Of a stretch of DNA of 64,000 bases, positions 4,941 through 56,537 are shown in pieces. Source of the DNA: Amphiscolops sp. MND2022. Taxonomy: Eukaryota. The notes below the pieces were generated by a model that was not told the DNA's origin, did not search any database, and was given only the letters and a program-made list of their open reading frames with translations. The stretch is from positions 36,582,001 to 36,646,000 of the forward strand of contig OZ076409.1 in assembly GCA_964187785.1 (NCBI GenBank), in the 5' to 3' direction. Within the stretch, counting starts at the first letter, position 1. Each line of letters starts with the position of its first letter. Position numbers and translations under genes: made by a program.

Positions 4941-7900
4941 CTGAAACAAAATTTTAAAAGCAATTTCATCACTGTTCAACTCGCTTGATTAGGGTACATT
5001 ATTTATGTTGATAGTTCCACTCAAAATAGTGGACCGGTATCAAAAGTTCTCGGTTTTTTTTTATTTAAGCAAGTTCATCATTTGCTAGTCATTGTTTTGC
5101 TAAAAACATCACATTCTCAGAACTTTTCCGGGACCCTTTCGTCTCGTTTACATCCACATTCAGCATTGGGCAGTATCGATCCCGCCACTTCGGTATCGGT
5201 GAAAAAACTTGCCACGGTAAGAGTCTTGTTGCCGCAGAATTTTTTTGCTAGATTTTTTTCTAAAAAATGTTCTTATGACATAAAATTTCATGCTCCTGAA
5301 CATATTTGCGTGTACAAATTCAAACCAGTGTCATACAATGATGTACATTTGAATGGTGCCATTTGAAATCGAAAGTTAGAAAAAAATGATAGGTTACAAC
5401 AATAATTGAACAATAAGTTGTTGTAAACCCGCGAATCGGATCGCTGCTACGGGTATGCAAACCTTTCCAGAGTAACATCTATCGTTCTGCATAGATTGTC
5501 GCAGAATTTTCAGTCAAAACGTTTTGACGAACAAACTATTCTCTGTTCTATTCAAATTTCAGATTTAAATTTCATTATAACTGTTTCGAGTCTTAGCTTA
5601 GCTTACCTGAAGCACGCGTTTGGTGAGTCCAGTTTTCTGAGCAAGGCTTTTGAGGTCTTTGGCGTCCGGGTTGTGGTTTGCGTTGAAGTACTGTTTCATG
5701 GCCTGCAACTGGTTGTGTTTGAAGCTCGTCCTCATTCGCTTGGACCTCCCGGAGGTATCATTCAACCCCAGCCCCCCTGGACCAGTCATGTACCCGGAAA
5801 GGTGATGGTGGTGGTGTCTATGATGATGTATGGGGTCCAGGCCAAACAGACCTGACTGAAGTCCACTCTCGGCCTCCAAAATACCTGTCGTCACATTTAA
5901 CCAAGTGATCAAAATCAACTTTATTGGATGTTATTAATCGGATGAAGGTATGTGCTAGGGTTTTTCAAATAGATTCACATTTAAAGCTATGGCTTGTATT
6001 GCTTCACTCATACTCAGTGGTTCGTTTTTTTTTGGAAATTTGGGTTCTAATTCCAAATTATTAGGCTCCTGAAAATTTACTGTTTTTTGCTGAAATCCGT
6101 TTTGTTTAAGATGAAATCTTCTGTGTGGTTTCTCTGAGCTATTGCCCCCCCTCCCTCAATGAGTTTTTTTTTCAAAATTCAAATAGAATACGTTGAATAT
6201 AACAAAATTGAACAATTGTTCAGTATCAGCTAAGCTATAAGCCCTTCCTTTTGGTTATCTGGTTATGAAACCAAAACTTAGTTGAATACTAAGTTATAGA
6301 TTATGTTCAATAGGTGTCCTTACCCGCAGCTGTGTAAGGCAGCAAGCTGTGATCATCCAGATGTTTCTTCTTCCTTATCCTGCCTTTGGGAGTACCCGCA
6401 CTGTTTGGCAAGTGACACCCAGCCGGGATCATTTTGAGGAAGTCGAAAGCGGGGTAGTGCGTGGGGGGCAGGGGGTTCGACGGGATCGCAATCAACGAAG
6501 GGGGGTGTGGGGGCATAGGTGAAGCTTGCACGTGACTCATGGGTGTAGGGGGTGCCACCGGGTGAGGAGGTGGGGGTGTCGGCTGGGTGAGTCTTGCATT
6601 CATCACACTCGTAGAAAAAGAAGTCGGCTCTGTGGTATTTTTATTATTTATATTGGTAACATTGTTGCTATTTGCAATTGATTTGATTATATTGCCATTC
6701 TGATCATCTTGAGAGCTCGCTTTGACAATCTCTTGAGGGGCTATTTGTTGATTGTTGACATTGCTTGCAGGAACAGCCAAAGACTGATGAGTTTTGATAT
6801 TGTGAGTCGATGGGTCCGGTTCTTGCATTGACAAGTTGGGAAAATGTGTGAGACAGAAAATTTGATTGTTTTGAAATGCTATTTGGTCGCCGGGTTTGAA
6901 AATTTGATTGCACGTTAGGCACGAGAAGCAGCTGACGTGATAGGGAAAGTTTTTGGCTTTGAGAACGAGTTCTGTGGGCTTGATGGGAACGTCACAGCGA
7001 TTACATCTGCTTTTCGAAAGGACTTCCCTAAAAGAACAGAAATCAGTTCAACGAAAAAAGAAAAAAAGCCCGATGATGCGTTTCAAACTTCTTTATGGCC
7101 ACGCCCGACTGGGTTTCAACGAATGCGTCATTGCCAATTTTCGCAATTAGTTCGCTGGGCAACACGTTCATGATCAGCCAATTCTCCAAACTTTTTTCTG
7201 TTTGTAGGATTGTGTCTTTAAAAGGGGAACAAATTGGTTATCCAAAATTGATTTGTTGTTGATCACAATTTCAGTTTTTTCCACATAACAGAGTCTCCGG
7301 TTTCAAGTTCTCTTGAGAACTAATACGAAATTGATCATACTTTTGAAAAAAATCCCTTTGGGACATACTGGAAAAAGATTTTGAACAGACACGAAAATGT
7401 GAACGTTTTTTCCTTACTGAAAGTAGTCCTTCCTGCAATACACTCTGCCATGTTTGAAGAAACAGGAAGTTTGATCGGACAGATTGATAGAACAGGTGAA
7501 ACATTTGAGACACCTTTCGTGCCAGAACTCCCCATCAGTGCTGAGGTAGACCTGATCATCGATCGGGAGGAGACATCCAGAACACTGCTCCCTCTCTAAC
7601 TTCAAGGGCATCCCCTCCGAAAGGGCGCTGTGCAGACGGTGGTGCTTTGAGGCGGGGCTGCCATCGAATAAAAACGGCTGGCTTTCTTTGCCGCTCAACA
7701 GAGATGCCGCTATTCCCTAAAATGCAAAATCAAAATAGAGAAAACTGGTTTTAAGCCATATGGAGTAATTATCCTAAATTTCAAAAACCTCTAGAAGATA
7801 GAATTATTGCTCTGGAGCAAATTGATTTCGAAGAGAATAATGATTTGCTGAAGCTGTGTCAGCAAATCAATCGGATTTTGGATAATAAACAAGGCTTTGG

Positions 7901-10900: not shown

Positions 10901-13900
10901 TTTACAGTATATTTGTTTTTAAAGTCAAAGTTGTTTCTTTATGATGAACGAACGTTTTCAACCTCATATAAAAAAGAATGTAGAAGATTCATTGTGGTTA
11001 GGTGCTATCAAAAATTACTTACTGGGATTCAAAAAATCTTAAATGACCATGCTACTTTTACAGATACAACAGTACCTTTGCTCTTCTTTACCCTTACGAT
11101 CAAAAACGAATGATCAATTAGTCACGGGAAAATCATCGCTAGTCATTCGGAAAAAAGTTAGGAAGCTCCATCCCCAATACTTACTATAAGAACTCAACTT
11201 CGTATCAATGCTAATCCAAAGAGCGCACAACCAGGAATCACGGTATGAAACCTCGTTTTAAAACAACAGGTATGAACGCGCAATTACAGAACCGGTGATG
11301 TCGTAATTTGCCCAGGATTCATAGATTTCCGAGCAATAGAAGTTCTAACGGATGACTTAGGGCAGACTCATCAAATTGTAGAAACCTTTCTTTCCTGCTT
11401 AGATACTCTTCTTCTTTTGTCATTTGTCTACATTGATTTTTAGGAGTCGGAAAAAATTTTCGACTACTTATGCAATCGTGCTGTTTTTTTTTCTCCCGAC
11501 CTTTTCATGAAAATTTTAAATTTCTCAAAAACTGTCCATACGATTTTCACGAAATTTTGCATTCTACACCCAAAGGGGCCCCTGCGTGCGCAAAGGCATC
11601 AAAATCGTATGGTTGGGATGAGAGAAACATAGCCAAAAATGGCCAAAAAACAGCGATTTTTCGTCTTTTTTCGATTTTCTCAAAAACTGTCCATACGATT
11701 CGAACGAAATTTTCTAAAGTTGTTCTACACCATATTAGAGTCTTATATGTGCAATGGCATCAAAATCGTATGACTGGGATGTGAGAAACATAGCCAAAAT
11801 TAGCCTAAAAATGGCCAAAAAACTCATTTTTCGATTTTTTTTCTATTTTCTCAAAAACTGTCCATACGATTCGAATGAAATTTTGTACAGTCATTCTACA
11901 CCATGTTATGGTCCTTTGTGTGTAATTTCAACAAATTCGTATTGCTGGGATGTGAGAAACATAGCCTAAATTAACCCAAAAATGGCCAAAACAGCCATTT
12001 TTCGACTTTTTTTGACTTTTGCTAAAACTGTTCATACGATTCGAAGGAAAATTTTTACAGTCATTTTCTACACCATAGTATGGTCCTATGTGTGCAATTC
12101 CAATAAATTGTTATGACTGGGATTGGGGCGAGTCAGAAGAAAAAAAACCTAAGCCGACTCCTCTACCGCATATGCGGCTCTGGTCATATATGCATCTAAA
12201 TTTTTCTTCTTGCAGAAAATGCATAATTTTTCAACTCATTTTTTCTAGAGTAATCATGTTCAAAAGATTACCGCCTTTTGGTTGATTTAGGCTGAGTAGA
12301 TTTTTGAGTTTTTTCAGAAACAAGACGCCCGCGGACCAGCGGGATATTTTCCGCCCCAAATCTCTTCGAAAAAGACTACTGGACAACAAATTTGTTCCTT
12401 GTTGACTCTTTTCAACATTCCAATCTACGAAGTCTGTCGAAAATTTGACAAAAATTGCATAAAAACTTTGAAAATTGGAAAATTTTGGGTTTTCTGTCAT
12501 TTTCGGTTTCAATTTGATATATTTTTCATTTAGAAAACAGCCATTATCTCTTCGGAAAAGCATACTGGACAACGAATTCCTGCCATTCCTGTCACGCGGA
12601 GCGTTTTCAACATTCTAATCCACGAAGTCTATCGAAAATTTGACAAAAATTGCATAAAAACGTTAAAAATCGAAAAATTTTGGAATTTTTTTTATCATTT
12701 TTGGGGTAATTTTTCTTTTTGAAAAAACGCATTTATCTCCCTAAAGAATACTATTGGACAACGAGTTCGTGTCTTGTTGAACGTTTTCAACATTCTAATC
12801 CACGATGTTTATCGAAAAAATGACAAAAATTGCATTAAAACGTTAAAAGTCGAAAAATTTTGGAATTTTTGTCATTGTTTTGGTAATTTTTCTTTTAAAA
12901 AACCGCATTTATCTCTTCAGAATACTATTGGACAACGAATTCGTGCCTTGTTGAACGTTTTGAACATTCTAATCGACGATGTTTATCGAAAAATGGCAAA
13001 AAATGCATGAAAACGGTGAAAATTGGGAAAGTTTTGAATTTTTGTCATTTTCGGGGTCATTTTTGGGTCATTATGGGGTCATTTCCGTCATTCCCAAAAA
13101 AGTCCAAAAATCTTTACAAATACATATCGCATGGAACTAAATTTATGTCAGTTGAATTCTGTGAATGTACTTCTTCATATTACGTAAACAATAATTCTTG
13201 GCAAATTTTGTATAAAAAAAACCGTTTGATTTAAATATTTTCCTTTCCCATATGAAAGTGAGCCACTTTCATACAATTTTGCTTGATGTTTTTGTTGTTT
13301 TCGGTGAAAAGCAAGACAAATAGCATGTGACTTTCTCAAGTTCGTACTACAAATTCCTCTTTCTCTGCCTTTTTGTACTTCATTTCATTTCAAAATACTT
13401 GAACGAAAGAACTAGTAATTTCAGTTTTCTTTGATATTGAAGATCGTTTTCCGACTTATCTCCTTTGAAACGAAGCTCTTGATGTCTAAATTGAACCAAC
13501 TGAACTTGAACAGATCGAAAAGAGGCATTTGTGGACATTAAGGGTCCATCTGTTAATCCATGATGGGGTTTGATTCTATTTGAGTGTCTTTCGTTTGTAT
13601 CACCGTTTGTCTCCTAAGTTTTCCATATTCCTTCGATGTCGATTTAATTCAAAAGCTAACGAACTATATAGATTCAATTAACGAGCAGATTTTTCAGTCT
13701 TTGTTTCTTTTCCATGAAAAACTTGTTTCAAATTAGCTGTGAACTTCACTTTTGGATGACTTAAAAGATAGGTTGTCGCAAATTTGGCCGACTCTGTTTC
13801 TCAAAAAAAGTCCAATCAAAACCTTTTGATGTAAGAATTCAATCAAATGGACGAGTTGTACTCAAAACATCCTGGCCGGAAAACTGAACAAATAGCATTT

Positions 13901-17502: not shown

Positions 17503-18812
17503 TGCAAAGTCTACTAAGAGATGCATCTCGATTGAAAAATCTTTCACGATATGCATGGAATACAGCCGCTATAGTTTGGTTGGCTTGAAAACGTTTGAAA
17601 ACCTACTTGAAAAGCTTGCAAATATGCAGAAAACCTTACCAATTTGAAAAAAAAACATGCCAATGCCTCATCTCGGCGACCATGTTTCATAGTTTAAACA
17701 TAATATGATTCCATTATGTTCCACTGTAAGATCCATCCATCGTTTTCAAAATAAGATCAGAGTACGAGAAACCTTGAAAGTCAGACAAAAATTGAGATTT
17801 CGGACGACAAGCTTTTGTAAACAAAGTTCACCACTTGATTACCGAGTCTTTATGCCGAATTTGTAGGGAGGCACCTAGCTCGTGGGAAACATAGTATATC
17901 ACCTGACAGGACCCACGACAATAGCGTTGTTCGTTTCGCCGATTTGACAAAAGTAGTAATATTATCGTCTCTCTCGGCAGTAAATTTCCGAAACAATTTC
18001 GACAAAATTATGACGAAAATTTTTTTTTATTCGAAATGCGTTTTCTTCAAAAGATGCATAAATTTGAATAATCTTGCAACAAAAGTGTTCTGACAGTGTC
18101 TGGCAAGGTTTTCAAAGGCAAAAGCTTTGCTAAAAAAATTGAAGATTTAGGGTTTCTTGCATCTAGGCACTGCGTCATTTTTTATTTAAATACAATTCTT
18201 TTGACTCATTTCAAATTTTCACCTCGAAATTCAAGAAAATCACACATTGTCCTAAAAACCCACAGAGAATTTCAGTCGATGCTCTTGATAGAAAACGCAA
18301 ACTATTGTAGTTGTTTTTTTAGAGACCACACGAACAGACAGATTCTATAAGGTTATAAAAATCTTTGTGGTTCCGCCATTTCACTTGCGCTTAGCTATTT
18401 GGTTACCGAGAGTGTCTGCGTGGTGACAGTGGCTGAGGAGCAGGAGTAAATGTGTTCCAATCCGTGTTGGTAAACATTTTGAAGCATTTGGAAGACTAGA
18501 ATAGGTCAACTGCCTGCCGTTTCGGTTTTTTATCACTATGCGACTTTTTTGGAAAGATGTTTCTCACAAGTTTGGGCGTTTGGTGTTTTTTTGTGAGAGA
18601 AGTTGAATTTCTGTTTTTCGAGTTGCAAGGGTGCCTTCTTTCGTTTCTCTATAGTCCTGTGAGATGGAGATAGTTTTCTAAGTGATTGTTCTTGGCATAT
18701 TGAAAAACTATGCTTTTTAGGGCCCTAATTTGAGCCGTTCTCTCAATAATTTGTTTCATAAGAGCAAAATTGTGGTATGAGAGAGTTTTTACATTTAGGT
18801 CATTTTCTTGAA

Positions 18813-20462
18813 TTTTACGTCTGCAACTTAAACGGACAATAACACTTACCAAGCTTTACGACGGCCTGGTTGACAACTTGCGAACAAAACTAAAGCTGAT
18901 TTGTCCATGAAAGGCACTTGCAAAATTCACTACACAAAATAAATTTGAGATTTCCTTCCGTTTCAATCATTGGACAATATCTCTAGTAAAGTATCTTGTT
19001 TTTCAGAATAAAGGTAATTCCACTCAATCAGCAGGAGTTCAAATGAACGTTATCCTTCCTCAAGTGCTTTTTGCTAAACACTTGTCTAGAAATTCCGCTG
19101 AATTTCCAGCCTTCTCGACAAGAAGCTAGTAAAGAATTGCTTCTTTTGCTTGATGAGGTTCAAAGTTGCGTAAAGATATACTAAGCACGAAAACCCTTTT
19201 GGTTTTGGTTAATAAAAGATTTACAAGATCGGATATCTGTCAAACTGAATTTTCTGATGTAGTGGCAAACAGGTTGTTACAACCTATAAATAGGACGATG
19301 ATATCATAAAGATGCTTGTGGGTATAAAATTGTAAACCTGTTCAATTTTTGCTCCAGGCAGTAATAAAACGCTAAAGTAAGCAATATCGAGCCCTTTTCC
19401 TTGGGTATCCGAAAATAACAGGTTTCTGGTTTTTGAAACTTTAAAAACATGATATCGCATCGATCTTCAATAAAAAATTCGGCTAGAGTTACTTTGAATA
19501 AGTTCCCGAAGTTGGTGAAGCAATTACTGCATCTTTGACTTTGTACTTATTCTGTTTCACAAACATGAAGTAACTTTGGACTTTTAAACGATGACTATAG
19601 GAATCATTTTAGCTGTCTTGATGAGCGGTAGCGTTGTTGATCTGCTAAACCAAATAACAACTCCAAATCCTTGCGTCCACAATAGCTTTCTCAAGCAGAA
19701 ATATCGCAACCATATGCAATATAGGTAAACTGATGTTGGAATTTCGAAACATAAGAATGTCACTTGCTCAACTCTACAAAAGCTCTTTAATGGCCAGAGT
19801 TAACTGAAATAATCGCTCGAGAAACTTTCAACCTTTCACTTTCTTCAAAACTTGAGTAGCAAAGTCGACCAATTTGAATCTCTACTTTGTTGTGTCTCTT
19901 TTAGAAGTTAACTCTGGTTACTTTAGCATACAGGAAATGCCCCAGGATGGATGTTTATAGTTAAATTTATCATGACCATAAAAGCGCCTTGAAATATAGA
20001 ACCAGTTGATACAAATTTTTTATCTGAGTTGTAAGTATTCACCAAAATATGTAAAAGTATATATAAAAGCATACCTTCAAGCAAAATTAAGGCCTAGATT
20101 TACACTTGTTATTTGCTGTTAAATAATTAGCGATGTTCTCAAATAGTCCTTGTGGGTCCTAGAAACACCGCCGTAGCCCGAATATTGCGTTCATATCCAC
20201 TTAAAGACAATAAACAAATATTAAAGTCCAAATATACAATGACTTTGGATAAATGATCGAAAATGACCCAGAAGACAAGACTTTAATTTTCTGGCTCCGG
20301 TTTCTATTTTTTGGTCTAGATTTCTCATTTAGGTCAAAGTATGTCGAAGGGAAGAAAAACAAGCACTCAAATCCAGTTCCACACATTATTACAGCATTTT
20401 GAAACTAGCCAAATCGACATATTTTTTCTTCTTTTTTCCAAACATAGTTTGAGGCACCAACA
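18813..20462 (-). repeat. 3' LTR (1650 bp)
   Basis: Colinear with 25948-27561; begins TGTTG on the minus strand right after the integrase tail. Confidence 0.9.
18815..19450 (-). pseudogene. SGNH/GDSL esterase-like coding region in the 3' LTR (frameshifted)
   Basis: Reads RNLLFSDTQGKGLDIAYFSVLLLPGAKIEQ, then YDIIVLFIGCNNL and DNVHLN. Confidence 0.7.
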
Positions 20463-23400
20463 CGTTCAAAAAGTGGCGCCAGTTTAACCACAGGTCGTTT
20501 CAAGTTTCCATCGACAGTTTTGATCAATGCTGACCTCACAATACCATTTTTTCCAGGGTAAACTTCCAAGACGCGTGCCATCTTGTAGTGAGACCGTTAT
20601 ACATTGTTTTCTATCAACCAAACAAGATCTCCAATTTCAAGGTTTGGTCTCGATTTGTTCCATTGAGCTCTCGCATTGTTCTGAGGAAGGTATTCTTTAA
20701 CCCATCGCTTCCAAATCATGTCTGCATAAGCTTGGCCTGATCTAAACATCTTTCTATGATTGGCATAAACCTCTGCGGTTGGAAAAAACGGAATACAAAC
20801 ATTCGCACGCCCTACAATAAAATGATTGGATGTAAGTGCTCCAAGATCTTCGGGAACATCGCTTGCTGAAGTAATAGGACGCGCATTCAATGTTTGATCC
20901 ACTAAGCACATAGTAGTTAACTAAACTTCATCTGTAAGTGATCGACTACCCAATATAGCCACCATTTTTTTCTTGCAGCTTTTAACCAATCTCTCCCATA
21001 CACCATCAAAATGTGGCGCCCGAGGAGGGTTAAAGTTGCATAAAATGTGCTTTTGGGCCAACTCTGACGTAGTTTGGTCATGATTCCACGAGTTGATGTA
21101 TTCTTCCAATTCTCTCGCAGATCCAACGAAGTTGGTACCGTTATCACTAATGATAGTCCTCGGCTTGCCCCGTCTAACAAAAAACCTGTTGATAGCTAGC
21201 ACGCAAGAATCTGTGTCAAGGCTTCGGACTTCGTCAATGTGTACTACTCTGGTGATCAAACATGTAAACAAACAGCACCAATGTTTCATATATTTCGTAA
21301 CAATTTAATTTGAAACGGACCAAAATAATCCACCCCGAACTTTGGTAAACGGGTATGATTGATAATCAAGTCACTCTGGGGGTGAATTGGCTTATGAGTG
21401 GGGTTTTATTCTGTGCGCATAATTTCCGACAGAATACACAACTAGTTTTGATACTTCTCAAAGCGTTCCGTAACCCTATTATCCAAAATTTCTGTTGAGT
21501 AACACTTCTCACATACTCAACACCTTCATGGTTGTGTTCCAAGTGTAGATCTCGCAGCATGGTTATCACCATGTCGTGTTTCGTAGATACAACAATACAG
21601 GGTGACGTTGTTCAAATCTTGAATTGGCATGTTTGATGCGACCCCTAATTCTGATAACGCCTTTTTCATCAAAAAAGGGTACAAATTTGAAAGATTCCCT
21701 CCTTTTTTAGATTTACTGAAACTTTCTTTTTCACTGAAAAGTTCTGGGAAAGATTCTTTTTGAATCATTTTCAAAAGTCGTTCTTCTGCTCGGTCCAATG
21801 CTTCAAGGGGTAAAAATTTAAATTGACGTTTATACTTCAAACGCAAACAAAACGAGCTAACACGGACGCATTTTGAGAAACTACGGAATTTATTCCAATA
21901 AATTGGTGGCTCCTGAGTCATACTGTGTTCGCAATTGCTGCAACTTCAGGAAGATGATCAGAACCCACATTAATTGACTGCAAAAATAAAGGCCAATCAT
22001 CAGGATGGTCTTTCAATCAAGAAGGTTCGGTTGACCAATCACTTTCGGGTAACTTTTCCACCGTTAACCAACGAGTTCCAATATCAGATGGATTCAACTC
22101 GCCTCGGATCTGTTTCCATTCATCAATGGTGGAGTTTTCCAGAAATTCAGCTGCTCTGTTGGCAACAAGAACATTTTGTTTTTTGTCCGCTGAGTTTAAC
22201 CATTTCAATACAGTAACGGAATCTGTCCTCTGAGTAACACTTTTGATAGGTATATCGCGTTCTTGAATAATCAACTTTCTCAACCTCACGGAATAAAAGG
22301 CTGCTTGTAGCTCAAGACGTGGAATGGACAACTGTTTGATAGGAGCTGTTCTGCATTTACCTATTACCAACGACACTTCGATGCCATCTTCTACTTTTGC
22401 TCGAAAATTTCAACAATGCACATTGCTTTCAATGAGGCATCACTGAAAATATGTAATTGCACGTTCTTGGGAATATTAGTAAAAAATTTCCGACGAAGAG
22501 TAATCTGCTTAATCGTCTGCTTTTCCTTTAGCCACCCGAAGAAGATTCGCTTATCTTCATCACTGAAGTTTTCATCCCATGACTGTCCAAACGAATCCAA
22601 ATACTCTTCAAAAGCATTCTAATTGGCATGGTAAACGGTGCAAAGATTTCCATGGGATCACATACCGACGAAACAAAAGATAACACGACTCCTTGCGTTA
22701 CTTCTTGTGGACATTCCTCGTTTGGTCCTCGGCAGACTTGAAGAGTATCTGCATCTATAATCCATTCGAGACCTAGGATGGGTGATGATTCAGCACTCGA
22801 AGTAAATTCATTAGATTTCAACAAATCTTCCGAAGGAATACTTTCAAGCACTTCAGGACAATTGCTCGCCCACTCCTTCAAAGTGTAGCCACTGAGCCTC
22901 AGCGTTTCCACCAACTGATGCTAACATTCTAAGGCCTCTTGTGGTGTATAAACACTCATGACAAGATCATCCATATAGAAGTATCTGTCTCTTGTAGCGG
23001 CTGCCACAGGAAACTCCCTTTGGTTATCTCTACCGCTTTGTTGGGAGCCATAATTGGCACACGTTGGAGATTTCTTTGCTCCAAACACATGCCTATTGTA
23101 CTCAAACATTCCCAAGTTATCATCTGGCTTGTCGCACCAGAGAAAACGTAAACTTCTACATTCTTCCTTTGGAACTGCTACTTGTAAAAACATAGACTCT
23201 ATTTCGGCAGTGATTGCTATCTGATATTCTCTGAGCCTAAAAACAATTCAAATAGATTCGGCAATAAGTCAGGTCCACTCAATAGTTTATTATTCAATGA
23301 GATTCCCTTGAACTTTGAGGTTGCGTTGCAAACTCTTCTGATTTTGCCTGGTTTGTTCGGATACTTTGTTGGGTGATGAGGTAAGTACCATTACAAATCT

Positions 23401-24300
23401 TTTTGCGTATTGTCAATCTCTTCTTGATCGAGGTTTCGGACAAAAATATATTCCAAATCTTCAATAGTAACTTTATATGCATTTTTCAATTCAAAGTCTT
23501 TCTCCAGTCTCTTTTCCATCGACAAGAACTGTTGATGACCTGAGTAATAATTCTTAGGCAAATCAGGATTGTCATCAGATCACAATAAACCAATTTAATA
23601 ACGCTCGCCGTTATGTTTAGCTGTTCTTTGTAAAATTGAAAATGGATTCACCACCTTGGATCGACCAGAGACATCACACACTGACGCATATGTCTCTATA
23701 TCCCACCATTTTTTCATCTGATTCGTCAACGGATCGGTTGCAACCGAATTGTTACAAGAAACCGATAAGTTGTTTGTTTCCTTTTTTAGCAAAGCTCCGC
23801 TAATGGTCCAACCCAGTGCTGTTTTAACTGCCCATGGTTGATTTCGTTCGCCCGATTTGTATTCCAGCGGCCTGGTCAAATGATAGGCTAGGCATCCTGA
23901 CCGAGAATGACTATAACATCAGTCATAAAGACTTTAATGTTAGGCAGATCAGAAAGGTAACTGTACTCGTCTTTCAGGTTCCGGAAGACATAGTCTTTTC
24001 CGCCAACATTTCTGTTAGGGTGATTACAGAACGTTACATTATCTCCAGCAGTTTCTGCCTCGCCTAAGTCAAATTTGGCATTTACGATTTAAGTTTTCAA
24101 GTCAGACAAACCATGAATGCCAGCAACAGACGTTACTGAATCTTTACCGTTTAACCGGAGAAGATCAACCGAAGTTTGATCCGTAGAAGAGACTGGATCC
24201 GGTATCACAGAGCGCAATGGTTTCAACCCATCGTTCTTCATTACCTATTGAAATAGGAATCAACTGTAAGAAACCGTTGGTTCCCGTCGACATCATACAA
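20463..24300 (-). pseudogene. pol: BEL/Pao pol (protease, RT, RNase H, integrase) with many stops and frameshifts
   Basis: Protease IALCDTGS (~24200), RT VFGAKKSP and YFYMDDL, RNase H LHIFSDAS and IPRLELQAA, integrase H...H/C..C, VDYFGPF, SDNGTNF, GVWERLVK, and tail RPVVKLAPL. Confidence 0.95.
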
Positions 24301-25900
24301 GTACTGCCGGCCTTGTTCTGAGACGGCGGGTCTTCTGTTTTCTAGTCCTTATCGTCCTTATCTATTTTCTACGCATCAGAGTGTAGATGCCTATTGTGCT
24401 TCTTGATGCAACCTTTCACATCACATACACGTTCTGACTTGCAGTCTTTAATCAGATGGGAATAATAACGATACCTTTTAATATCGCTGTTTTTGTTTTC
24501 ATCAAGTGCGAGAGACATCAGCCTGGGAAAGATTGACGTAGCACTAAATGACTTTTCATTCTCTTCCATTTGCAGTTGTATTTCTTGCTGTTCAAGTGTT
24601 TTTCTGCTTTCCATTCCACCAGTTTCTGCTTCCGCTTCTAACTCGGAAGAGCTTCCGCTTCATTTCCTTTTCCATTTTGTTTCTTCGTTTTTTTCCAAAT
24701 TTAGCTCTCGCTGCTTTTTCTCAATTTCCAACTGAGATTTTTGCTCTAAAACTTTAGCGAGCAACTCTAAACGACTTCGCTCACTCAGCCTTGACAAATC
24801 GGAACCCGCGGTCGTTTGATTCCCGCGGTCGGTAGACATCACTTTTTCGGCAAAGTTCTTGAAGGTGAGATGTCCACTAGTGAACGTTTCTTCACTGTAC
24901 TCAAAGTTGCTGATCCTGGTTTCCGAGGAGCAACTTCCTTAAGATTCTCTTTTTGTCAAACTCGGTAGATTGGTGCACATCTCTCAGCAATTTCAGTTTT
25001 TTTTCCAGCGTATGGTCTGGACTTGTGCGCAAATTACGTGTCTGATAGTCTTCATTGTCATGTAAAGTCGCTGGAATGTCTTTTTGAGAGACAATTCCCT
25101 CCAAGCCATCTGAAGTCGTAGGTTGGTTCCGATGATTTTTCTTCGTTCGAACGATCGACATAGTTCAATAAGTTGGTCGTCGCTTGTTGTATCTTCAAAC
25201 TGAATTCTTAAATATCCTTTTCAAATATTGACAGGCTGCCAACTGATTCCGTTTTCAGCAGGCCACAAGCATTTTCGTAAGCCCTATCAACTTTGTTTTT
25301 GTTTCTGGAAGTTTTTGAAAGGATGATTTCACTTTACTTGACCTATCGTCTTGTTGCATCAAATTGTTAATCGTATCTACTTCACAAGTTAAATTTCGTT
25401 TCAACTTACAAAACTTGAGTAATTCTCTCTCATCTTTCAATATTTTTGGGTGCGAGCTAATATACTCAAGATTGTCGTGATTTTGACATCATTGTTTAAA
25501 CCGCTCTTTGAATTCTAAATTTAGTTTTGTAAGAGCTTCTTGACGATCGTTTTGATACTTTTCTTTCATCATCGGGAGATTGAGTTCGAATTCTTTCTGT
25601 AATTCATCCGTAGATGCCCAATGTTTTAAACAAAAGTGGATCATATCGGTCCACAGGACTGGCATCTTAGAATTCAAATTCTGAGAGTCAATTTCCATAC
25701 TTCGAATGGATGTGACAATTTCATTGACTCGTTTCTCATGATCGATCCAGTCTTGCAACGTGGATGAGTTTTTTAACGAATCCGAAATTGAGACTTTTCT
25801 TCGTGTTCCATTTGTCATCCGTACGATCATATAATGAGGATCATGAAGCCCTCCTTCAGCCTTACTCACAACAGTCAGATAGGTGAATTTCACAATTATC
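24300..25900 (-). pseudogene. gag: BEL/Pao gag remnants, apparently with an internal deletion near 24480
   Basis: Coiled-coil fragments (24660-24842, 24500-24614) abut a Zn-knuckle remnant (CKSERVCDVKGCIKKHNRHLH); no capsid-core-length segment lies between them. Confidence 0.7.
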
Positions 25901-25927
25901 ACATAGATTGAATATGCAGAGTGCCTT

Positions 25928-25944
25928 TCCGGGTCGCTGCACCA
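25928..25944 (-). promoter_or_regulatory. Primer-binding site of the 18813-27561 element
   Basis: TGGTGCAGCGACCCGGA, 3 nt inside the 5' LTR; shares TGGT...CGACCCGGA with the PBS at 1891-1907. Confidence 0.7.
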
Positions 25945-25947
25945 AAA

Positions 25948-27561
25948 CTTTACGTCTGCAATGTAAACGGACAGTAACACTTACCAAGCTTTACGACGGC
26001 TTGATTGACAACTTGCGGACAATATTGAAACTGATTTGTCCAGGAAAGGCACTTGCAAAACCTACTACACACAATAATTTTGAGATGTCCATCCCTTTCA
26101 ATCGCTGGGCAATATCGCTTGTAAAGTATCTTTTTTTTCAGAATAAAGGTAATTCCACTCAATCCGTAGGAGTTTAAATGAACGTTATCCTTCCTCGAGT
26201 GCTTATTGCTAAACACTTGCCTAGAAATTCCTCTGAATTTACAGCCTTCTTGACAAGAAGCTAGTGAAAAGGTAACATCTTTTTCTTGAAGAGGTTGAAA
26301 GTTGCGTGGAGGTATACCAAGCACGAAAACCCTTTTGGCTTTGGTTAATAAAAGATTTGCAAGATCGGACATCTGTCGAACTAAACTTTCTGACTTAGTG
26401 GCAAATAGATTGTTACCACCTATAAATAGAACGATGATATCATAAAGATCCTTTTTGCGTATTAATTCTGCTCCAGGCAATGATGAAAGGTTTAAGTTTG
26501 CAATTTTCTTTGGCTATCCGGAGTTTACAGGTTTCTGGTTTTTGAAACTTTGAATACATGATATTGCATCAATCTTCATCAAAAAATTCGGCTGGAGTTA
26601 CTCTGAGTAAGTTTCCGAAGTTGGTGAAGCAATTACTGCATCTTTGACTTTGTACTTATTCTGTTTCACAAACATGAAGTAACTTTGGACTTTTAAACGA
26701 TGACTATAGGAATCATTTTAGCTGTCTTGATGAGCGGTAGCGTTGTTGATCTGCTAAACGAAATAAAAACTCCAAGTCCTTGCATCCACAATAGCTTTCT
26801 GAAGCAGAAATATCGCAACCATATGCAATATAGGTAAACTGATGTTGGAATTTCGAAACATAAGAATGTCACTTGCTCAACTCTACAAAAGCTCTTTAAT
26901 GGCCAGAGTTAACTGAAATAATCGCTCGAGAAACTTTCAACCTTTCACTTTCTTCAAAACTTGAGTAGCAAAGTCGACCAATTTGAATCTCTACTTTGTT
27001 GTGTCTCTTTTAGAAGTTAACTCTGGTTACTTTAGCATACAGGAAATGCCCCAGAATGGATGTTTATAGTTAAACTTTCTATGACCCTAGAAGCGCCTTG
27101 AAATATAGAACAAGTTGATACAAATTTTTATCTGAGTTGTAAGTATTCACCAAAATATGTAAAAGTATATATCAGAAGCATAGATTTACGCGAAATTAAG
27201 GCATAGATTTACACTTGTTATTTGCTGTTAAACAATTAGTGATGTTCTAAAATAGGCCTCGTGGGTCCTAGGACCACCCATGTAGCCCAAATAAGGCGCT
27301 CAACCATTTATATACAATAAAGAAATACATACACTGACTTTGAAAAAATGATCAAAAATGACCCAGAAGACAAGATTTGAAAATTTTTTGGCTCCGATTT
27401 CCACTTATATGGTCTAAATTTTCCCTTTGGGTCAAAATATGTCGAATGGAACAAAAACTAACACCCAAATCCAATTCCACACATTTTTACAGCTTTTTGA
27501 AACTAGCTAAATTGACCTATTTTTTCTTCCTATTTTCTAAACATAGTTTGAGGCGTCAACA
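25948..27561 (-). repeat. 5' LTR (1614 bp)
   Basis: Colinear with 18813-20462; outer end TGTTG on the minus strand, adjacent to TSD TTGAA. Confidence 0.9.
25950..26560 (-). pseudogene. SGNH/GDSL esterase-like coding region in the 5' LTR (176-aa open frame 25950-26480; block I frameshifted just upstream)
   Basis: GAT AGC CAA (DSQ) at ~26515, then PGA, IIVLFIGGNNL, VFVLGIPPR and DNVHLN..G. Confidence 0.75.
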
Positions 27562-28412
27562 TTGAAACTGGTCAATCGGCTCAAGCGACGAATTGTTTTC
27601 TTTTGGAAACTCTTAAAATGATGACAAAAACACCACTTAGTGGTTTGATTCTGCTTGTCAGTTAATAGTCTAGGAATGCCTAGCAATTTTTAGAGCAATG
27701 TTTGTAAAACTGGTTGTTGGTGGAATCAAGTATTGAATATCACAACAAAAAATCCGAAGTAAAGGCCGATGAAGTTGAGTCTGATTCACACCTCCTGCGG
27801 ACTATATTTATAGAAGAAACTACCAACCTCTCGTGAGTAAAATCAAGTCGTTTTCCGAACGTTTTATTGTGTCTACATTCCGTCTAAACACTTTAAACAG
27901 TCTTATATAAGTTGCCGACAACTCGATTTATCTCGGACCGAAATGGACTTCATCGATTTTTTTTACATCGTTCCTAATTTAGATGAACAAACTTTCAGCT
28001 CAGTTGAACGTCGTGCTTCTCAATTCCACCAATGACAATTAAAAGATATCAATGCTATCACTATTCCAATTGAGATGAATGAAAGCTAACTTTACTTGAG
28101 TAAACAAGGAAGCTAACAAAACTCGGCAGCCAATTAAAAAAGAGTCATTCCAACTTGTCATTTTTATTGAATAAAAATACAATTTACTTGAATAAAATGA
28201 CCGGCAGAGAATCAAGCAGCAGTTCCCCAGGGTAAACGCAGCAAATTCTCAGTCTCAGCGAAAGAAGGAATTATTGGAAATTGGTGATTAATTCTTCTAA
28301 TTGAAATTTTGTTGCGTATTTAGTTTTATCAACAATCGCAGATGCATCTAAAATGATATTTATTCCTTTAGATGGACACCAATTAGCGGGGACAGGTAAA
28401 TGGAACGATTAC

Positions 28413-41805: not shown

Positions 41806-42866
41806 ATGGATCTATCAACCTTCGTAACATATGATAAAAAAGAATCTTTTCTTTTCAGTATTGCAAAATCTAATCAAGAAATTGTTGAAACTACTCATTC
41901 TAAACCACAAGAAACTCTAGAATTTAAAATGACTGATCAAAAAGAATCTTTCTCATTTGATGTTCCTCTCCAACTAAATGAAAAATGGATGATGGGAGTA
42001 ACAAGTTTAGAAGTATACAACACCGTATATAATATTACTGAAACGAATAACAAACTACCAATTTTCTCAAATATGAACTACTCGATGCACTTGAGTTTGA
42101 CACTGGAGTGGTGCTGAATATGAAAAAGCTATATGAAACTTATAATTTAGAAAATAAAAAAAACTTTACTATGAATTTATAGAAAAAGCTAATATATTTT
42201 TAACTACTAGTTATAAAAAAGAAGAAACTTCCAAAAAAAGATTTTGACTCTTTACAGCAAATAAAGAGCAACATTGCTATAACTATTCCAAACTTTCAAG
42301 TTGAGAATGAGTTTATTGAAATACAGTTAGTACCAGGTGTATACGAACTGATTGAAAAAAATATTGCCATTAAGCAATTAATTACTGATTCGGATTATGA
42401 CTTGGTTGACAAATCAAAATTCAAAAAAGATCTTACAGTTTTTAGTATTGAATTCAACATAATACCCGACACAATATCGATGAAATCAGTTTTAACAAAC
42501 TCATATCCTATTCATTTTAACTCCGAACTTAACAAAGTCCTGGGATTTACAAACAAGGATTACCAAGCAGGAACTCACACTTCAGAAAAACCAGTCATGA
42601 TCACAGCCACAGACAAAGTTCATCTGAAGTGTGACTGCGTAGATGGTTCAATTGTTATTGGTATACGAGAACAAATTTTATTTTCTTTTAATCTTAGTGC
42701 TCCTCCCGGATATAAAATTATAAAAGAACCAACCACTGTTTTGTACAAGCTGATAAACAAAACACGACTGGACACAATCCAATTTTCCCTTGAGGATAGC
42801 AATCATAACCCTGTTGATTTCAACGGAGAGACATTAACATTTACAATTCAAATTATCAAGATTTAA
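41806..42866 (+). pseudogene. Putative minor capsid (penton) protein, fragmented
   Basis: N-terminal FDVPLQLNEKWMMGVTSLEVYNTVYNIT and C-terminal VHLKCDCVDGS...PPGYKI...VDFNGETLTFTI resemble Polinton minor capsid motifs; frameshifts lie between them. Confidence 0.75.
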
Positions 42867-42877
42867 TATATATATAA

Positions 42878-43327
42878 ATGAGCTTTATTAAATTTAAATA
42901 TAATTCATGTTGTGTTGGTGGAAAACATTATTCCGCTACCACAAATCTTCGTGGAGATATTACAGTCAATAAAAAAACTGGTATGCCAGTAAAACTATTT
43001 AGAGGTACTTGTTCAACTTGTAAAGGAAATAAGAGTCTCATTGTTTCTGACCAAACTATACAAGCAGAAGGATTGGGTGACTTCTTTCGTTCGGTAGGAA
43101 AAGCCGCTAAGAATGTTGGAAAGAAAATACTCAATAACCCAGGCCGCGCATTGGAAATAGCAGCAAATATTGGACCTGCAGCAGCAAGTGAAAATCCAAA
43201 ACTTATTGCTGCAACTGCTCCTTATATTATAAAATTTGTTAATCAAGGGAAGGGGTTATACAAAGCTGAAAGTTTGTATCAAGCAGGTAAAGCAGGTAAA
43301 GGCCTGTATCGGGGGAAATTTCATTGA
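42878..43327 (+). CDS. Basic Polinton protein with Cys pairs and an amphipathic GLGDFFRSVGKAAK segment (possible core or membrane-active protein)
   Basis: Intact 149-aa ORF with ATAAATG start; function is inferred. Confidence 0.6.
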   Translation: MSFIKFKYNSCCVGGKHYSATTNLRGDITVNKKTGMPVKLFRGTCSTCKGNKSLIVSDQTIQAEGLGDFFRSVGKAAKNVGKKILNNPGRALEIAANIGPAAASENPKLIAATAPYIIKFVNQGKGLYKAESLYQAGKAGKGLYRGKFH

Positions 43328-44401
43328 ATGTATTCAATAATTATACTTAATAAATGTATTCAATTCATAATCGGGATGACTTGGAAAAATTTTAAAAAAT
43401 TGCAAGAAACAAAACCTTTACTTCACAAAGAAAGATTAAAAGAGAAACTAAGGAAGCAAGACTTTCATTACGATATGGAAAAAGTTTTTGAACCCGTAAC
43501 AGAAAACCAGAAACAAAACATTTCTAAACAACAAAAACTTTCCGAAAAGCAAATACAAGCACTACGAGAGTCGACTCAAACTACAACACAAGCAATACAA
43601 GAACAAACTAGAGCAATACGAGAATCGAGTAACACAATTCAAAAATCAATTGAAGAAGGAATACAAGAATATGATGAAATTTTTACCCGTAATAATCAGA
43701 TACTTACGAATCTTGGTAATTCCAACCAAATTGATTCTAGTATTGTAAAAACACTTTCCAACCTTCTTAATGACAAAAACAAAAGTCAATTTAGTTTAGA
43801 AACAGTTATGGGTAATCCGCGCAGCTCCGCAAATTTATTCACGATTAACCCTTCCAATCCACAACAAGTAATAATTAAAAATACTACACTAACCTTCTTG
43901 GGTAGTGGTAACATATATGATCTAAATGACCCAGATTTTCAATATTTTATAACTAATACACAATTTGATAGACAACTAACAGTTTTTAATTTCTTAAATG
44001 ATATGAATAATAACATAAATTATGGGGATAAAAAATCAATGAGATATTATTTTAACAACGATTTGATTAAGCAATACTATCAACAATCCACAGAGCTTTC
44101 TGCAGAGCTTTCCACGCAGCTTCCCAATCAGGTGCAGGGCTACGCGGGAAGTGGATTAAATGGCGAAGCTGCGCGAAGCTACGCGCCAAAGCTACCGCGA
44201 AGCCATGCAAATCAGTACGTCTTCCTCCCATCTGATCCAGACGAATTAGTGGATCAATTAAAACTTCTTTATTTTGAAAAACTAGGAGGAAATGACAACC
44301 CCCAACTCAATGAACAAATCATAGCAATTGTAGATAAACTATTGGAGTATGAATGCATTACAACAAATCAACATCAAAACATGATCTCCTCAATTATTTA
44401 A
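43328..44401 (+). CDS. Polinton conserved hypothetical protein (357 aa)
   Basis: Coiled-coil N-terminus; C-terminal FLPSDPDELVDQLKLL...GGNDN...IIAIVDKL resembles a motif recurrent in Polinton hypothetical proteins. Confidence 0.65.
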   Translation: MYSIIILNKCIQFIIGMTWKNFKKLQETKPLLHKERLKEKLRKQDFHYDMEKVFEPVTENQKQNISKQQKLSEKQIQALRESTQTTTQAIQEQTRAIRESSNTIQKSIEEGIQEYDEIFTRNNQILTNLGNSNQIDSSIVKTLSNLLNDKNKSQFSLETVMGNPRSSANLFTINPSNPQQVIIKNTTLTFLGSGNIYDLNDPDFQYFITNTQFDRQLTVFNFLNDMNNNINYGDKKSMRYYFNNDLIKQYYQQSTELSAELSTQLPNQVQGYAGSGLNGEAARSYAPKLPRSHANQYVFLPSDPDELVDQLKLLYFEKLGGNDNPQLNEQIIAIVDKLLEYECITTNQHQNMISSII

Positions 44402-44469
44402 AGGATCAGTTTGTGGATTAAAGATCATGTAATTTGGATTAGAATCATTACAAATCCTGTACCTACTCT

Positions 44470-45073
44470 CATTTTTATCTTCCAATCTATTTATTATTAA
44501 TTAATAGAATTTTTTGTTCCATGCCTCTCTGCACAAACTTTTGAATTCCTCATAAGACATATCAAAATCTGCTATGTCCCTATGAATGTGTTCTACATCT
44601 TTCAGTGTTTGTTGAAATAAAATTATTATATTCGAAATGTTTCTAACTGTCTTTTTTGGTGCATCAACATAACTCTGACCTAAATAATAAATATCACACA
44701 ATTTGTGTAATCCTCTAGTAAAAAATGGATCAATCAATTTCTGGTTGGAGTCTAACATATCATCAAAAACTACACAACACCCCCTATACTCTTCCAAATC
44801 CCCCACATTTTCTTCCACTTCTATTCCTCGTGAAGCTCCACCAATATCAAGGTCCTCATATTGTTCCGGACTCCTCCTAATGACACGAATTTGTTTCTCT
44901 GGATCTTCCAAAGGAATCAATCGTAAATTATTCAACAACAAAGGAGTCTTAACACAAAATGATGGACCAACTATTAAAGTTCTATTACACTTATTATCAT
45001 TATCATTATTATTATAATTTAATTTGGTGCGAAGCTGTGCGGGAAGCTGCACAGGAACCTGCACGGGAAGCAA
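44470..45073 (-). pseudogene. A32/FtsK-like packaging ATPase 1
   Basis: TLIVGPSFCVKT (damaged Walker A), VVFDDML (Walker B), FFTRGLH, YLGQSY; open frame 44501-45073. Confidence 0.85.
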
Positions 45074-45133
45074 GTCACCCCCAGTATGTACGAAGCTACG
45101 CGAATAGCCCTGCGAATAGCCCTGCGAATACCC

Positions 45134-45420
45134 CTATGTGGGAACCCGTGCGAATCTATGCGAATAGCCCTGCGGATACAAGTGTTGTTTCTCAATGTGG
45201 GATCCTAAATAACTCTTATTTAATTCCTTTTCACAAAATTCACACCATACCTTTTTATTAAAACATTCTTTACAAGTACTGTACATTTTACCATTTTTGT
45301 ATGAATAGAAATCCATCTTCATCTCATCACAAACTTTCCTTTTTTTTTACTAGAGCAATCATCACACACTTTACTCTCACTACTTTCATTACAGATTAAA
45401 CATCTTGTTATTGTACTCAT
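45134..45420 (-). pseudogene. Small Cys/His zinc-finger protein, frameshifted
   Basis: ATAAATG start at 45420 (MSTITRCLICNESSESKVCDDC), continuing in another frame as CKEC...CEFC...HIEKQH. Confidence 0.55.
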
Positions 45421-45429
45421 TTATTTAGT

Positions 45430-45710
45430 AAAAAAACACTAATAATCACTAAGAATCACTCATTATCACTATGTAATCACTAAGCAATTTTCACTAAATC
45501 ACTATGTATTCACTATACAGTCACTAAGAGCATTTTTTTCTCTGAGATTAAAGAGTATAGTGAAATTTAGAGAAAATAATTGCTCTTAGTAATGCTTAGT
45601 GATTGTATAGTGTTTCTTAGCGAATAATCACTATTTACTCAGATCTCTACGAATCACTAATTAATCACTAAATAATCACTAATTACTCAAGAAATCACTG
45701 ATGTTTCACT
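45430..45710. repeat. Intergenic array of (A)ATCACT(A) motifs in both orientations
   Basis: About a dozen TCACT/AGTGA units in 280 bp. Confidence 0.8.
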
Positions 45711-46684
45711 AAACATTATTTAGCTTATTTTTAGTAAAATTTTTTGCATGATCATATATAATTTTCTTAAAGTCCTCTTTAACTGAATCACTAATTAATG
45801 GTTGTTGCTTACGCTCAACGTAGTTGTCTATTTTGGATTCATCCACTTTTATTTTATTTTGTTTACAACAATATACATAATAAAAAGCTATGTTGTATGA
45901 TGTTATTCCATTTGTCTGGTCAGACATCTCCTCTAAAAATACCTTGAGTTTGTTATTTTCATCACCAGTGAAAAAATAACATTCATAAGCAACATAATCT
46001 TCAGGGCCCCACTTAGTCTGTTCGCTAGAATCATAAATTATATTGTATTTGTTGTTTAATACCTTGTACTTCTGACTCCTAGTGTCAAATTCAATAATAC
46101 CAAAGTCTAACTGATCACGGTATTGTTTCCACTTTGATTGTGTAACTCCGTCTTTGATTGAATACGTTTGTATTATGGTTTCAAAAAAGTTATCTGGGTT
46201 ATTATTTGTTATGTATATTTTGAAACAATTCTCTCTTACAACAGGGAGAACATCCTTTGCATAGTGAGCAAGGTATATCACTTGAATCCCATGATGTCTA
46301 CCAAACCGGAACAAGTCTTCTACTTTTGTTTTAGGACTTTTGTATGCACCTGCATCATCCAGTACAACAATCTTATTAGCAAGTGATTCAATACCTATTT
46401 TTTCTAACTGTAACAAGGGTACAAAGTTGGAAGCAGGAAACTTTTTCATCTCGTCCAAATACTATGTAACTTCGTTGAATCTGTGTTAAATAATGATTGA
46501 GGAAAGATGTCTTCCCTGACGCACTACTTCCATAAATTAACATATGACAGTTTGTATGCGTATTACTGACTGGTTGAGTTAGCGCTCCGCTATGTTCTTC
46601 CAAAGCTCCGCCTTCTTGGTTTGTAAGATGAGAGTATTTGAACCCTTCAAATTGTAATAGTTTTTTATATATTTTTTATACCAT
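45709..46684 (-). pseudogene. A32/FtsK-like ATPase 2, frameshifted near 46450
   Basis: LIYGSSASGKTS (Walker A), IVVLDDAG (Walker B), LFRFGRHHGI, YLAH, VRENC. Confidence 0.85.
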
Positions 46685-46919
46685 TTAGGGCGATTATAAC
46701 GCCAATACATTATGAATATAATTACTATTATAATTTCAAAAATAAAAATAAACATCGAGTAGCTTCGCGCGTTGCTTCGCGGAATAAATTTCCGTAATCA
46801 ACTGGCACGTTCGTTAGTGCGCCAGCTTTCGCCTTTGGACACCTTCGTGGCTTCCACCGAATTCTTGTGAGAAAAACTGTAATAATCATCATTCATTTAT
46901 TTAGAAAAAATTGTTATAA

Positions 46920-47808: not shown

Positions 47809-47844
47809 AGATTCCAACAGTTTTCCCATAATATTTTTTTATAA

Positions 47845-49490: not shown

Positions 49491-49715
49491 ATTTAGGGCG
49501 GTTATAACGCCAATATATTATGAATATAATTACTATTATAATTATAAAAAGAAAAATAAACATTGAGTAGCTTCGCGCGTAGCTTCGCGGAAAAAATTTC
49601 CGTAACCAACTGGCACGTTCGGTAGTGCGCCAGCTTTCGCCTTAGGACACCTTCATGTCTTCCATCGAACAACTGTAATAATCATCATTCATTTATTTAG
49701 AAAAAATTGTTATAA

Positions 49716-56534: not shown

Positions 56535-56537
56535 TTA

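Follow-up and report, generated by a model that had tools for sequence, protein, structure and literature searches.

An SGNH esterase gene under selection in the long terminal repeats of BEL/Pao retrotransposons of Amphiscolops sp., with relatives in Gypsy, Copia, and LINE elements

We found that BEL/Pao retrotransposons in the genome of Amphiscolops sp. MND2022 carry a gene for an SGNH-type esterase inside each of their long terminal repeats (LTRs) and that related stand-alone esterase genes occur in retrotransposons of other classes. The starting point was a stretch of 64,000 nucleotides (assembly GCA_964187785.1, contig OZ076409.1, positions 36,582,001-36,646,000; hereafter the window, in which all positions without further specification are given), and the analysis was extended to relatives across the genome. 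The best explanation overall, to which we assign a probability of about 0.7, is that the esterase is a conserved gene of the LTR, probably of its U5 part, that it would be the first open reading frame (ORF) of the element RNA, from which ribosomes would reach gag-pol by leaky scanning, and that its product would be a trans-acting enzyme directed at membrane lipid.

Results

The window contains an old BEL/Pao element with a broken esterase gene in each LTR

The window carries a minus-strand LTR element that spans positions 27561-18813, with a total length of 8.75 kb and a 5-bp target site duplication (TSD). Its features are as follows.

27562..27566, plus strand: TSD TTGAA, 5' LTR side
25948..27561, minus strand: 5' LTR, 1614 bp
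5' LTR, putative division: U3, about the first 430 nt; R, about nt 430-520; U5, the remainder
27160..27171, minus strand: TATA-like motif, candidate promoter, in a block conserved across subfamilies
26025..26569, minus strand: SGNH esterase pseudogene of the 5' LTR, start codon at 26569, 72% identical to the intact relative L007
25956..25984, minus strand: splice-donor-like GTAAGT and acceptor-like TTGCAG near the 5' LTR end, a conserved motif
25927..25944, minus strand: primer-binding site (PBS); the family PBS matches the 3' end of host tRNA-Phe(GAA)
20480..25920, minus strand: broken gag-pol with gag N-terminus, protease region, RT, Pao RNase H, integrase, and DUF5641
18813..20462, minus strand: 3' LTR, 1650 bp
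18890..19460, minus strand: SGNH esterase pseudogene of the 3' LTR, in three frames with internal stops
18821..18849, minus strand: donor/acceptor-like GTAAGT..TTGCAG motif, 3' LTR copy
18808..18812, plus strand: TSD TTGAA, 3' LTR side

The division into U3, R, and U5 is based on the TATA-like motif and on recombination breakpoints in relatives. As originally predicted, both LTRs were found with TTGAA on each outer side and a PBS at 25944-25927. A domain scan of the internal region gave matches to Peptidase_A17 (Pao), RVT_1, rve, and DUF5641, and the BEL/Pao order of gag followed by PR-RT-RH-INT with Pao-type domains is present in the window element as well as in its relative L061. The length and the TSD agree with the 4.2-10 kb and the TSD described for whole BEL/Pao elements (PMC8742986). 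In the ICTV profile of BEL/Pao, the 18-nt PBS is assigned to tRNA Arg or Gly, whereas here it matches host tRNA-Phe(GAA). A polypurine tract before the 3' LTR is absent from the window copy, and a purine-rich tract is present in relatives. The two LTRs are 90.7% identical over ungapped columns, and we conclude that the window element is an old BEL/Pao copy. Their identity is uneven, with 94-100% over the central 500 nt (27060-26580 versus 19960-19480) and mostly 84-93% in those flanking bins that have no large gaps, which suggests gene conversion or a recombinant origin.

Both esterase copies of the window element are dead. In the 5' LTR, the copy is interrupted by an early stop immediately ahead of block I, has shifted frame, and lacks an internal segment, and it has lost the family stop at 26027-26025, so that the frame continues to 25950; the copy in the 3' LTR keeps its stop at 18892-18890. 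It had been claimed that all four SGNH blocks (I, II, III, and V) are present in both LTRs, and they are recognizable in each, but neither copy is intact: block I of the 5' copy, given as LLFSDSQ, reads TPDSQ, and block III of the 3' copy, given as LFIGGNNL, reads LFIGCNNL. The stop codon at 25950-25952 does sit 2 nt from the 5' LTR end but is not the family stop, which in intact relatives is found 47-81 nt before the LTR end. Because the 5' copy has lost that stop, the additional cysteines of the Cys-rich tail described earlier are read-through, and the true tail has the form C-x3-5-C-x-C. Scanned alone, the window ORF matches the SGNH profile PF13472 with E=0.048, below the cut-off, and it is the intact relatives and the predicted structure that carry the assignment.

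Intact copies are found in younger relatives across the genome

A protein-level search of the genome gave at least 150 matches (150 scored of 1214 candidates) with identities of 43-100%, many of them open and paired at a spacing of ~8 kb, and a DNA search gave at least 43 matches (40 scored of 521 candidates). Given the number of protein-level matches, the esterase signal of the window is not due to chance. The clearest case is a young element (L061/L062) with LTRs of 1266 bp that are 99.84% identical, a single gag-pol ORF of 2226 aa running from DUF1759 through DUF5641, and an intact esterase ORF of 198 aa in each LTR, which bears out the proposal of an esterase in a BEL LTR that is copied to both ends. 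More generally, younger relatives have intact esterase ORFs of 188-198 aa in both LTRs and in solo LTRs, including elements with LTRs >98% identical, and the ORF is intact in 19 of the 30 LTR loci fetched for the L061 subfamily. The 30 loci of the window family comprise seven solo LTRs with TSD, five 5' LTRs, three 3' LTRs, and three unclassed loci, the ends of the remaining 12 not having been found by the motif test; L002 and L015 of this family have open frames of 188 aa. The expected retention of the esterase in solo LTRs is thus confirmed.

The family PBS occurs as an exact match 338 times in the genome. A tandem array of tRNA-Phe(GAA) genes with a spacing of ~190 bp lies on C5 from ~61.24 Mb (L174, L175), and the tRNA-Phe(GAA) pattern has 659 matches genome-wide.

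LTRs with the esterase measure 1.27-1.68 kb, compared with a typical, descriptive range of 0.2-1.2 kb for BEL/Pao (PMC8742986), the excess being the esterase; LTRs without it measure ~1.15 kb. The latter were seen in 13 of 16 close BEL relatives, a sample that was chosen by integrase similarity, favored long open frames, and included one known positive. In these 13, ~500 nt of the esterase ORF are missing and both ends of the ORF are kept; of the other three, two represent a family without any trace of an esterase and one carries the esterase. The short-LTR forms are young (LTRs 96.9-99.9% alike), and the pol of some is near-identical to that of esterase-bearing elements. An LTR search gave at least 40 near-identical matches, which do not span the deletion junction. 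Short LTRs in other family members had been named beforehand as grounds for abandoning the idea of an LTR-borne gene. Such members do exist, but they keep both ORF ends and are therefore deletion derivatives rather than the state before capture.

At least two independent esterase deletions gave LTRs of 1.15 kb (L157-L163, L166-L168, L170-L172). In one deletion type, the orphaned start codon is also lost in four of four copies examined, as expected if upstream AUGs are counter-selected. An origin of the short LTRs as retro-copies of spliced RNA was considered, but their junctions are not clean GT-AG joints and are blurred by divergence, and the idea was set aside as unproven. A check for a second conserved ORF upstream in the LTR was negative.

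The esterase has a predicted SGNH fold and is a selected gene

An AlphaFold model built from an alignment of 40 sequences reached a pLDDT of 92.9 and a pTM of 0.90; it replaced an earlier model from 25 close sequences (pLDDT 60), which, weaker as it was, likewise gave an SGNH fold. The best Foldseek matches of the model are SGNH hydrolases (PAF-AH, E 3e-6), and VIA aligned it with sialate O-acetylesterase (Z 16.8, rmsd 2.1 Å over 156 residues). The modeled structure of the esterase is thus an alpha/beta SGNH fold. Residues Ser-19, Gly-36, Asn-62, Asp-143, and His-146 are at least 90% invariant in the 40 sequences, at a mean column identity of 34%, and the catalytic S, G, N, and DxxH of blocks I, II, III, and V are present in each lineage and broken in the window copies.

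Sequence profiles detect this kinship weakly. Among 14 esterases scanned against Pfam, one passes a curated cut-off (P0064, PF00657); the other 13 match PF13472 or PF00657 at E values of 7e-7 to 0.3, apart from one with no match. A PDB sequence search with one protein found nothing, and profile searches gave weak matches only (best E 0.18 and 0.031). One profile search collected 530 proteins at E <=0.001, and the Atlas matches, which come without alignment, are GDSL-like clusters. The nearest longer relatives found, four in number, resemble ORF1 proteins that combine PHD/coiled-coil and esterase parts (in some cases with CCHC), at 22-30% identity; they suggest, without proving it, an origin among LINE esterases. 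The sequence link to the esterase of the LINE ZfL2-1 (PDB 4c1b) is weak (E=0.094); 4c1b was not among the fold matches listed, which is no evidence against kinship.

Genome-wide copies and their dN/dS had been proposed as a check on the gene, and it came out in its favor, with intact ORFs in many copies and dN/dS values between subfamilies of 0.09-0.24. Of the 17 pairs computed, one is saturated; six between-subfamily pairs range over 0.09-0.14, and the pair L063-L061 gives 0.24, compared with 0.27 for the N-terminus of gag as the control. Pairs within the window family gave 0.29-0.43. The six closest pairs scatter from 0.21 to 3.9 on few changes (including 1.18 and 3.9), as expected from decay after insertion, and pN/pS within the L061 subfamily is 0.43-0.52. 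These values bear on the alternative that the esterase is a passively carried fragment of a host gene, or a local duplication, without function. The two broken copies in the window and the many family members that have deleted the esterase would fit such a passenger, but dN/dS of ~0.1 between subfamilies largely refutes it, and conserved catalytic residues and intact copies in elements with LTRs >98% identical also speak against it; we regard it as negligibly probable. We conclude that the esterase is almost certainly a real, selected gene.

Stand-alone esterase genes are shared with Gypsy, Copia, and LINE elements

The same stand-alone esterase ORF was found in BEL, Gypsy, Copia, and LINE elements of this genome, with identities of 43-52% between element classes. 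Two Gypsy families (L069-72, L135-138) have it between the 5' LTR and gag, a Copia family (L075/76, L118) has it 3' of the PBS and upstream of gag, and three LINE lineages (L065-68, L149, L141) have it ahead of ORF1. In a second BEL family (L131-134), it is located between a 265-bp LTR and gag, and in a third (L116/117), it is located between pol and a 258-bp 3' LTR. In Gypsy L069/L070 and L135-L138, the LTRs measure 130-150 bp, and a PBS of the TGG type is absent upstream of the esterase start.

A phylogeny of 41 rows places the in-LTR esterases in a single clade (96/82) that excludes the post-pol copies, and it joins the esterases of the leader-BEL family to LINE2 (98/97). Because of these groupings, the three BEL placements look independent. 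The base of the tree is without resolution, and neither a donor nor an order of transfers is assigned. Both the sharing with Gypsy, Copia, and LINE elements and the AUG-free signature described below had been missed by the original prediction.

Two further observations concern the spread of the gene. On the minus strand of L139 (4263-8400), an esterase lies upstream of an ORF of 1099 codons with SET and DUF1258/Transposase_21 matches, and a second place with a similar esterase and a SET/Transposase_21-like ORF was seen on C7; on the strength of these two copies, a DNA-transposon carrier of the esterase is possible. Further, Gypsy1 (L071/L125) and the post-pol BEL family (L116) have a short repeated motif in common 3' of the esterase stop, possibly a trace of cassette transfer.

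Depletion of ATG suggests a U5 location and leaky scanning

In the 570 nt after the esterase start, all 24 copies located in LTRs, in leaders, or otherwise upstream have 0-2 ATG in any frame (expected 7.1-10.8), the leader lineages among them being not fully independent because of common cassette ancestry, whereas all six post-pol copies, which represent a single lineage, have 6-10 (expected 9.5-9.8). Summed over ten LTR/leader representatives, 4 ATG were observed compared with 91.4 expected, and a post-pol representative has 10 compared with 9.7. CAT, the reverse complement of ATG, is not depleted. From the esterase start to gag or ORF1, the counts compared with dinucleotide shuffles are 0 versus 7.7, 0 versus 12.1, and 2 versus 9.8 in BEL, 0 versus 8.8 in LINE, and 1 versus 5.0 and 1 versus 5.4 in Gypsy; in Copia, one ATG only precedes the gag start. 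Equal lengths of gag, treated in the same way, are not depleted. At the protein level, internal Met amounts to 0.30% in 40 esterase homologues compared with 1.2-1.9% in three polyproteins. The esterase start stands in a weak context, position -3 being a pyrimidine in most lineages, and the gag/ORF1 starts of BEL and LINE1 are strong (purine at -3, G at +4). A weak upstream start together with the absence of AUG up to the next ORF is the sequence hallmark of leaky scanning.

The in-LTR copies are depleted like the leader copies, and from this we infer that they are located in U5. Recombinant relatives agree with this placement. The sequence common to L079 and L157 is confined to the interval between LTR nt ~390 and the PBS end, and the differences between L063 and L170/171/162 are confined to LTR nt ~520 to 1610. 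Exchange of R-U5 at minus-strand transfer would be expected to leave such a pattern; in one recombinant pair, the downstream breakpoint is ~60 nt inside the LTR and not at the PBS. The TATA-like block lies at LTR nt ~400-430. We consider it likely, as judged from these sequence features, that the esterase resides in U5 and that gag-pol is reached by leaky scanning. Transcription would start near LTR nt 430-520 and place the esterase ORF on the R-U5 part, which is copied first in reverse transcription, and the esterase would in this way come to lie in both LTRs. Some ribosomes would start at the weak esterase AUG, and others would scan ~700 AUG-free nt to the stronger AUG of gag. The putative leader has several ATGs upstream of the esterase start, and plain cap-scanning would therefore need reinitiation after short uORFs, splicing, or a later transcription start site.

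Splicing and a U3 location as possible alternatives

A different account of the leader position makes splicing the principal route to gag-pol: the esterase start would be lost with an intron, the rest of the ORF would remain as an AUG-free 5' UTR, and the unspliced RNA would serve as esterase message and genome. RNA evidence comes from two contig sets of one seawater metatranscriptome sample, which have a word share of 0.06-0.08, include flanking DNA, and cannot show start, end, strand, or level. Two of the contigs jump from L061 positions 1835 and 1921, respectively, to the same AG at 2228-2229; one joint has GT..AG ends, and both remove the esterase ATG at 2157. It is in keeping with splicing that 38 of the 40 genomic LTR copies scored (of 59 candidates) are near full length and two partial and that a donor-like GT(A/G)AG lies at most 50 nt after the esterase stop in five lineages. 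Against it, the contigs come from a single sample, are ~90% alike to the reference, and stem from a library with flanking DNA, and they may reflect deletions or cryptic splicing in another strain; moreover, no conservation of the acceptor is visible in other subfamilies, and the stretch from the esterase start to that acceptor is also AUG-free. The joints are a hint of a splicing route to gag-pol, and splicing as the main route seems doubtful to us. Alongside leaky scanning, alternative splicing that removes the esterase start could provide a second route.

In BEL-LTR, Gypsy1, Gypsy2, LINE2, and L141, acceptor-like tracts follow GT(A/G)AG after the esterase stop. The 29-nt GTAAGT..TTGCAG motif was considered as a micro-intron of host type, but this found no support, since the exon-match gaps in RNA polymerase subunit genes are 0.4-1.2 kb or longer.

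U3 is usually the longest part of an LTR, and the esterase could lie there, having moved in from the env position; a spliced or internal message would then express it from the RNA's 3' end, in the manner of retroviral nef or MMTV sag. The BEL family with its esterase between pol and the 3' LTR provides a precedent for the position. On the other side, only the 47-81 nt mentioned above follow the esterase stop and contain no TATA-like motif, the LTR copies share the AUG depletion of the leader copies and not the composition of the post-pol copy, the LTR esterases branch separately from the post-pol ones, and the swapped module, which begins at LTR nt 390-520, does not depend on the first 400 nt. 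A U3 location is hence quite unlikely, and U5 remains the preferred placement.

The esterase is a candidate trans-acting enzyme

The 11 intact proteins analyzed are basic (pI 8.7-10.3) with a polar N-terminus, and their maximum hydropathy over 19 residues is 1.05-1.73; in this hydropathy scan, neither a clear transmembrane stretch or anchor nor a signal peptide was evident. The product would be a basic, soluble esterase of the cytoplasm and would most likely bind and hydrolyze acyl esters at host membranes, as ZfL2-1 does, the esterase of which binds negatively charged phospholipids according to the accessible text of PMC3905857. In this way, it would help particles of unrelated element types to assemble or traffic, and since it could act in trans, esterase-less deletion derivatives would keep spreading. 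That the gene is selected yet dispensable in cis agrees with an accessory enzyme that works in trans, not with a substitute for an envelope. Taking ZfL2-1 as the model, we tentatively choose membrane lipid as the target, at somewhat less than even odds.

Ranking next is a general counter-defense role, in which the esterase would remove acyl groups from a component of host silencing or immunity. Selection on the gene is retained in element types that have no particle in common, the gene is dispensable in cis as expected of a shared public good, and at two places it is associated with a SET/Transposase_21-like ORF; the DNA-transposon link amounts to two copies, however. We rate this role as rather unlikely.

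The original prediction had regarded the esterase as a possible membrane-interacting replacement of env; such a replacement would let particles leave or enter cells. One BEL family does carry its esterase in the env position, and membrane binding and a speculation on vesicles are on record for LINE esterases (accessible part of PMC3905857). That position, between pol and the 3' LTR, occurs only in the L116 family, whereas in the clade of the window element the esterase is inside the LTR. The polar, basic N-terminus and the low hydropathy maxima argue against such a role, as do the presence of the esterase in LINEs and its deletion in 13 of the 16 sampled relatives, which are young all the same; the part of PMC5408684 available to us also argues against an env-like role of GDSL ORF3s that lack transmembrane or coiled-coil parts. 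The env reading is very unlikely, and a trans-acting accessory enzyme is preferred.

A broader reading, to which we give an even chance, holds that one mobile esterase cassette, an "ORF0," has moved among BEL, Gypsy, Copia, LINE, and perhaps DNA transposons, always into the 5' leader and with a weak start and an AUG-free body, so that no promoter of its own is needed. Within one BEL clade, the cassette would represent the first case of an enzyme gene housed in U5; it would be exchanged at strand transfer and would serve esterase-less relatives as a public good in trans.

Comparison with known systems

Protein coding in an LTR is known from HIV nef and MMTV sag, which are located in U3; the esterase likewise is coded in the LTR, but in the putative U5. 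In the rice element Retrosat2, an extra ORF0 lies upstream of gag-pol, but the element is of gypsy type and, in the accessible text of PMC3485330, ORF0 has no assigned homologue.

Esterases are already known from LINE ORF1p, from gypsy ORF3, and on fish Helitrons, and the present case adds a selected enzyme gene in an LTR, probably in U5, that belongs to a cassette shared by four classes. The ORF1p esterases of CR1/L2/RTEX elements, such as ZfL2-1, are also transposon-borne and have an SGNH fold and a basic surface (PMC3905857, accessible part). There, the esterase is a domain fused with a coiled coil, whereas the present protein stands alone in all lineages examined, measures ~195 aa, and has a C-x3-5-C-x-C tail of its own; even the LINEs of this genome code for it in an ORF0, which precedes a PHD/CCHC ORF1. 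The GDSL ORF3 of Vesta (Ty3/gypsy) in bdelloid rotifers, as described in the available portion of PMC5408684, resembles the present esterase in being a stand-alone accessory ORF with intact catalytic residues and no transmembrane part, and also in cross-class sharing, since unrelated Athena/Terminon PLEs of one host have it in common. It differs in position, for it follows pol in gypsy, whereas the esterases here are inside the LTR or ahead of gag and extend across four classes; the phrase "within the LTR" is absent from PMC5408684. The texim SGNH genes of fish Helitrons are, likewise, mobilized by transposons and not required by most copies, but each is an intron-containing gene on a rolling-circle DNA transposon, unlike the retrotransposon esterase (PMC4021074, accessible part).

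For the proposed mode of expression, the closest parallel is in badnaviruses and tungroviruses, where, according to the part of PMC5902531 that is available, upstream accessory ORFs are AUG-free for leaky scanning and the downstream one is reached by splicing. ORFs I and II of these viruses have weak starts and cleared internal AUGs ahead of the replicative polyprotein, as the esterase does, and the downstream accessory ORF does without leaky scanning, as the post-pol esterase copy would. These are plant pararetroviruses without LTRs and with unrelated proteins, and the mechanism is experimental there and deduced from sequence here.

We found no report of an esterase in BEL/Pao, of one in an LTR, or of this pattern of sharing in the literature searched, which did not extend to Repbase, subscription journals, and supplements. 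The words "esterase" and "hydrolase" are absent from the BEL/Pao survey PMC3118150, "esterase," "SGNH," and "GDSL" are absent from PMC6338049, and the accessible text of PMC5718144 mentions only the rotifer ORF3.

Annotation tools discard LTRs, which are regarded as non-coding, yet here one houses a selected enzyme gene, so that any solo LTR may be a copy of the gene. What transposon esterases do, a question raised since they were found in LINE ORF1, becomes directly testable with a small stand-alone version that is present in four retrotransposon classes, and natural variants with and without the esterase exist on nearly identical pol backgrounds. The position-dependent clearance of AUG, with the post-pol copies as the control, represents a natural test of leaky scanning in animal retrotransposons.

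Other features of the window

Host exons of a LIM-homeobox gene (LIM PF00412, homeodomain PF00046), which resembles the Lhx2/9-apterous type, lie on the minus strand at 4611-7047, ~12 kb from the element. Degenerate tandem repeats of ~170-195 bp occupy 11625-13043. Farther along, a Polinton/Maverick-like element at ~42200-57200 has a double jelly-roll capsid (PF21738), an A32-like ATPase, an rve integrase, fragments that by eye resemble a protein-primed DNA polymerase, and a 2.8-kb tandem duplication at ~46280-51820.
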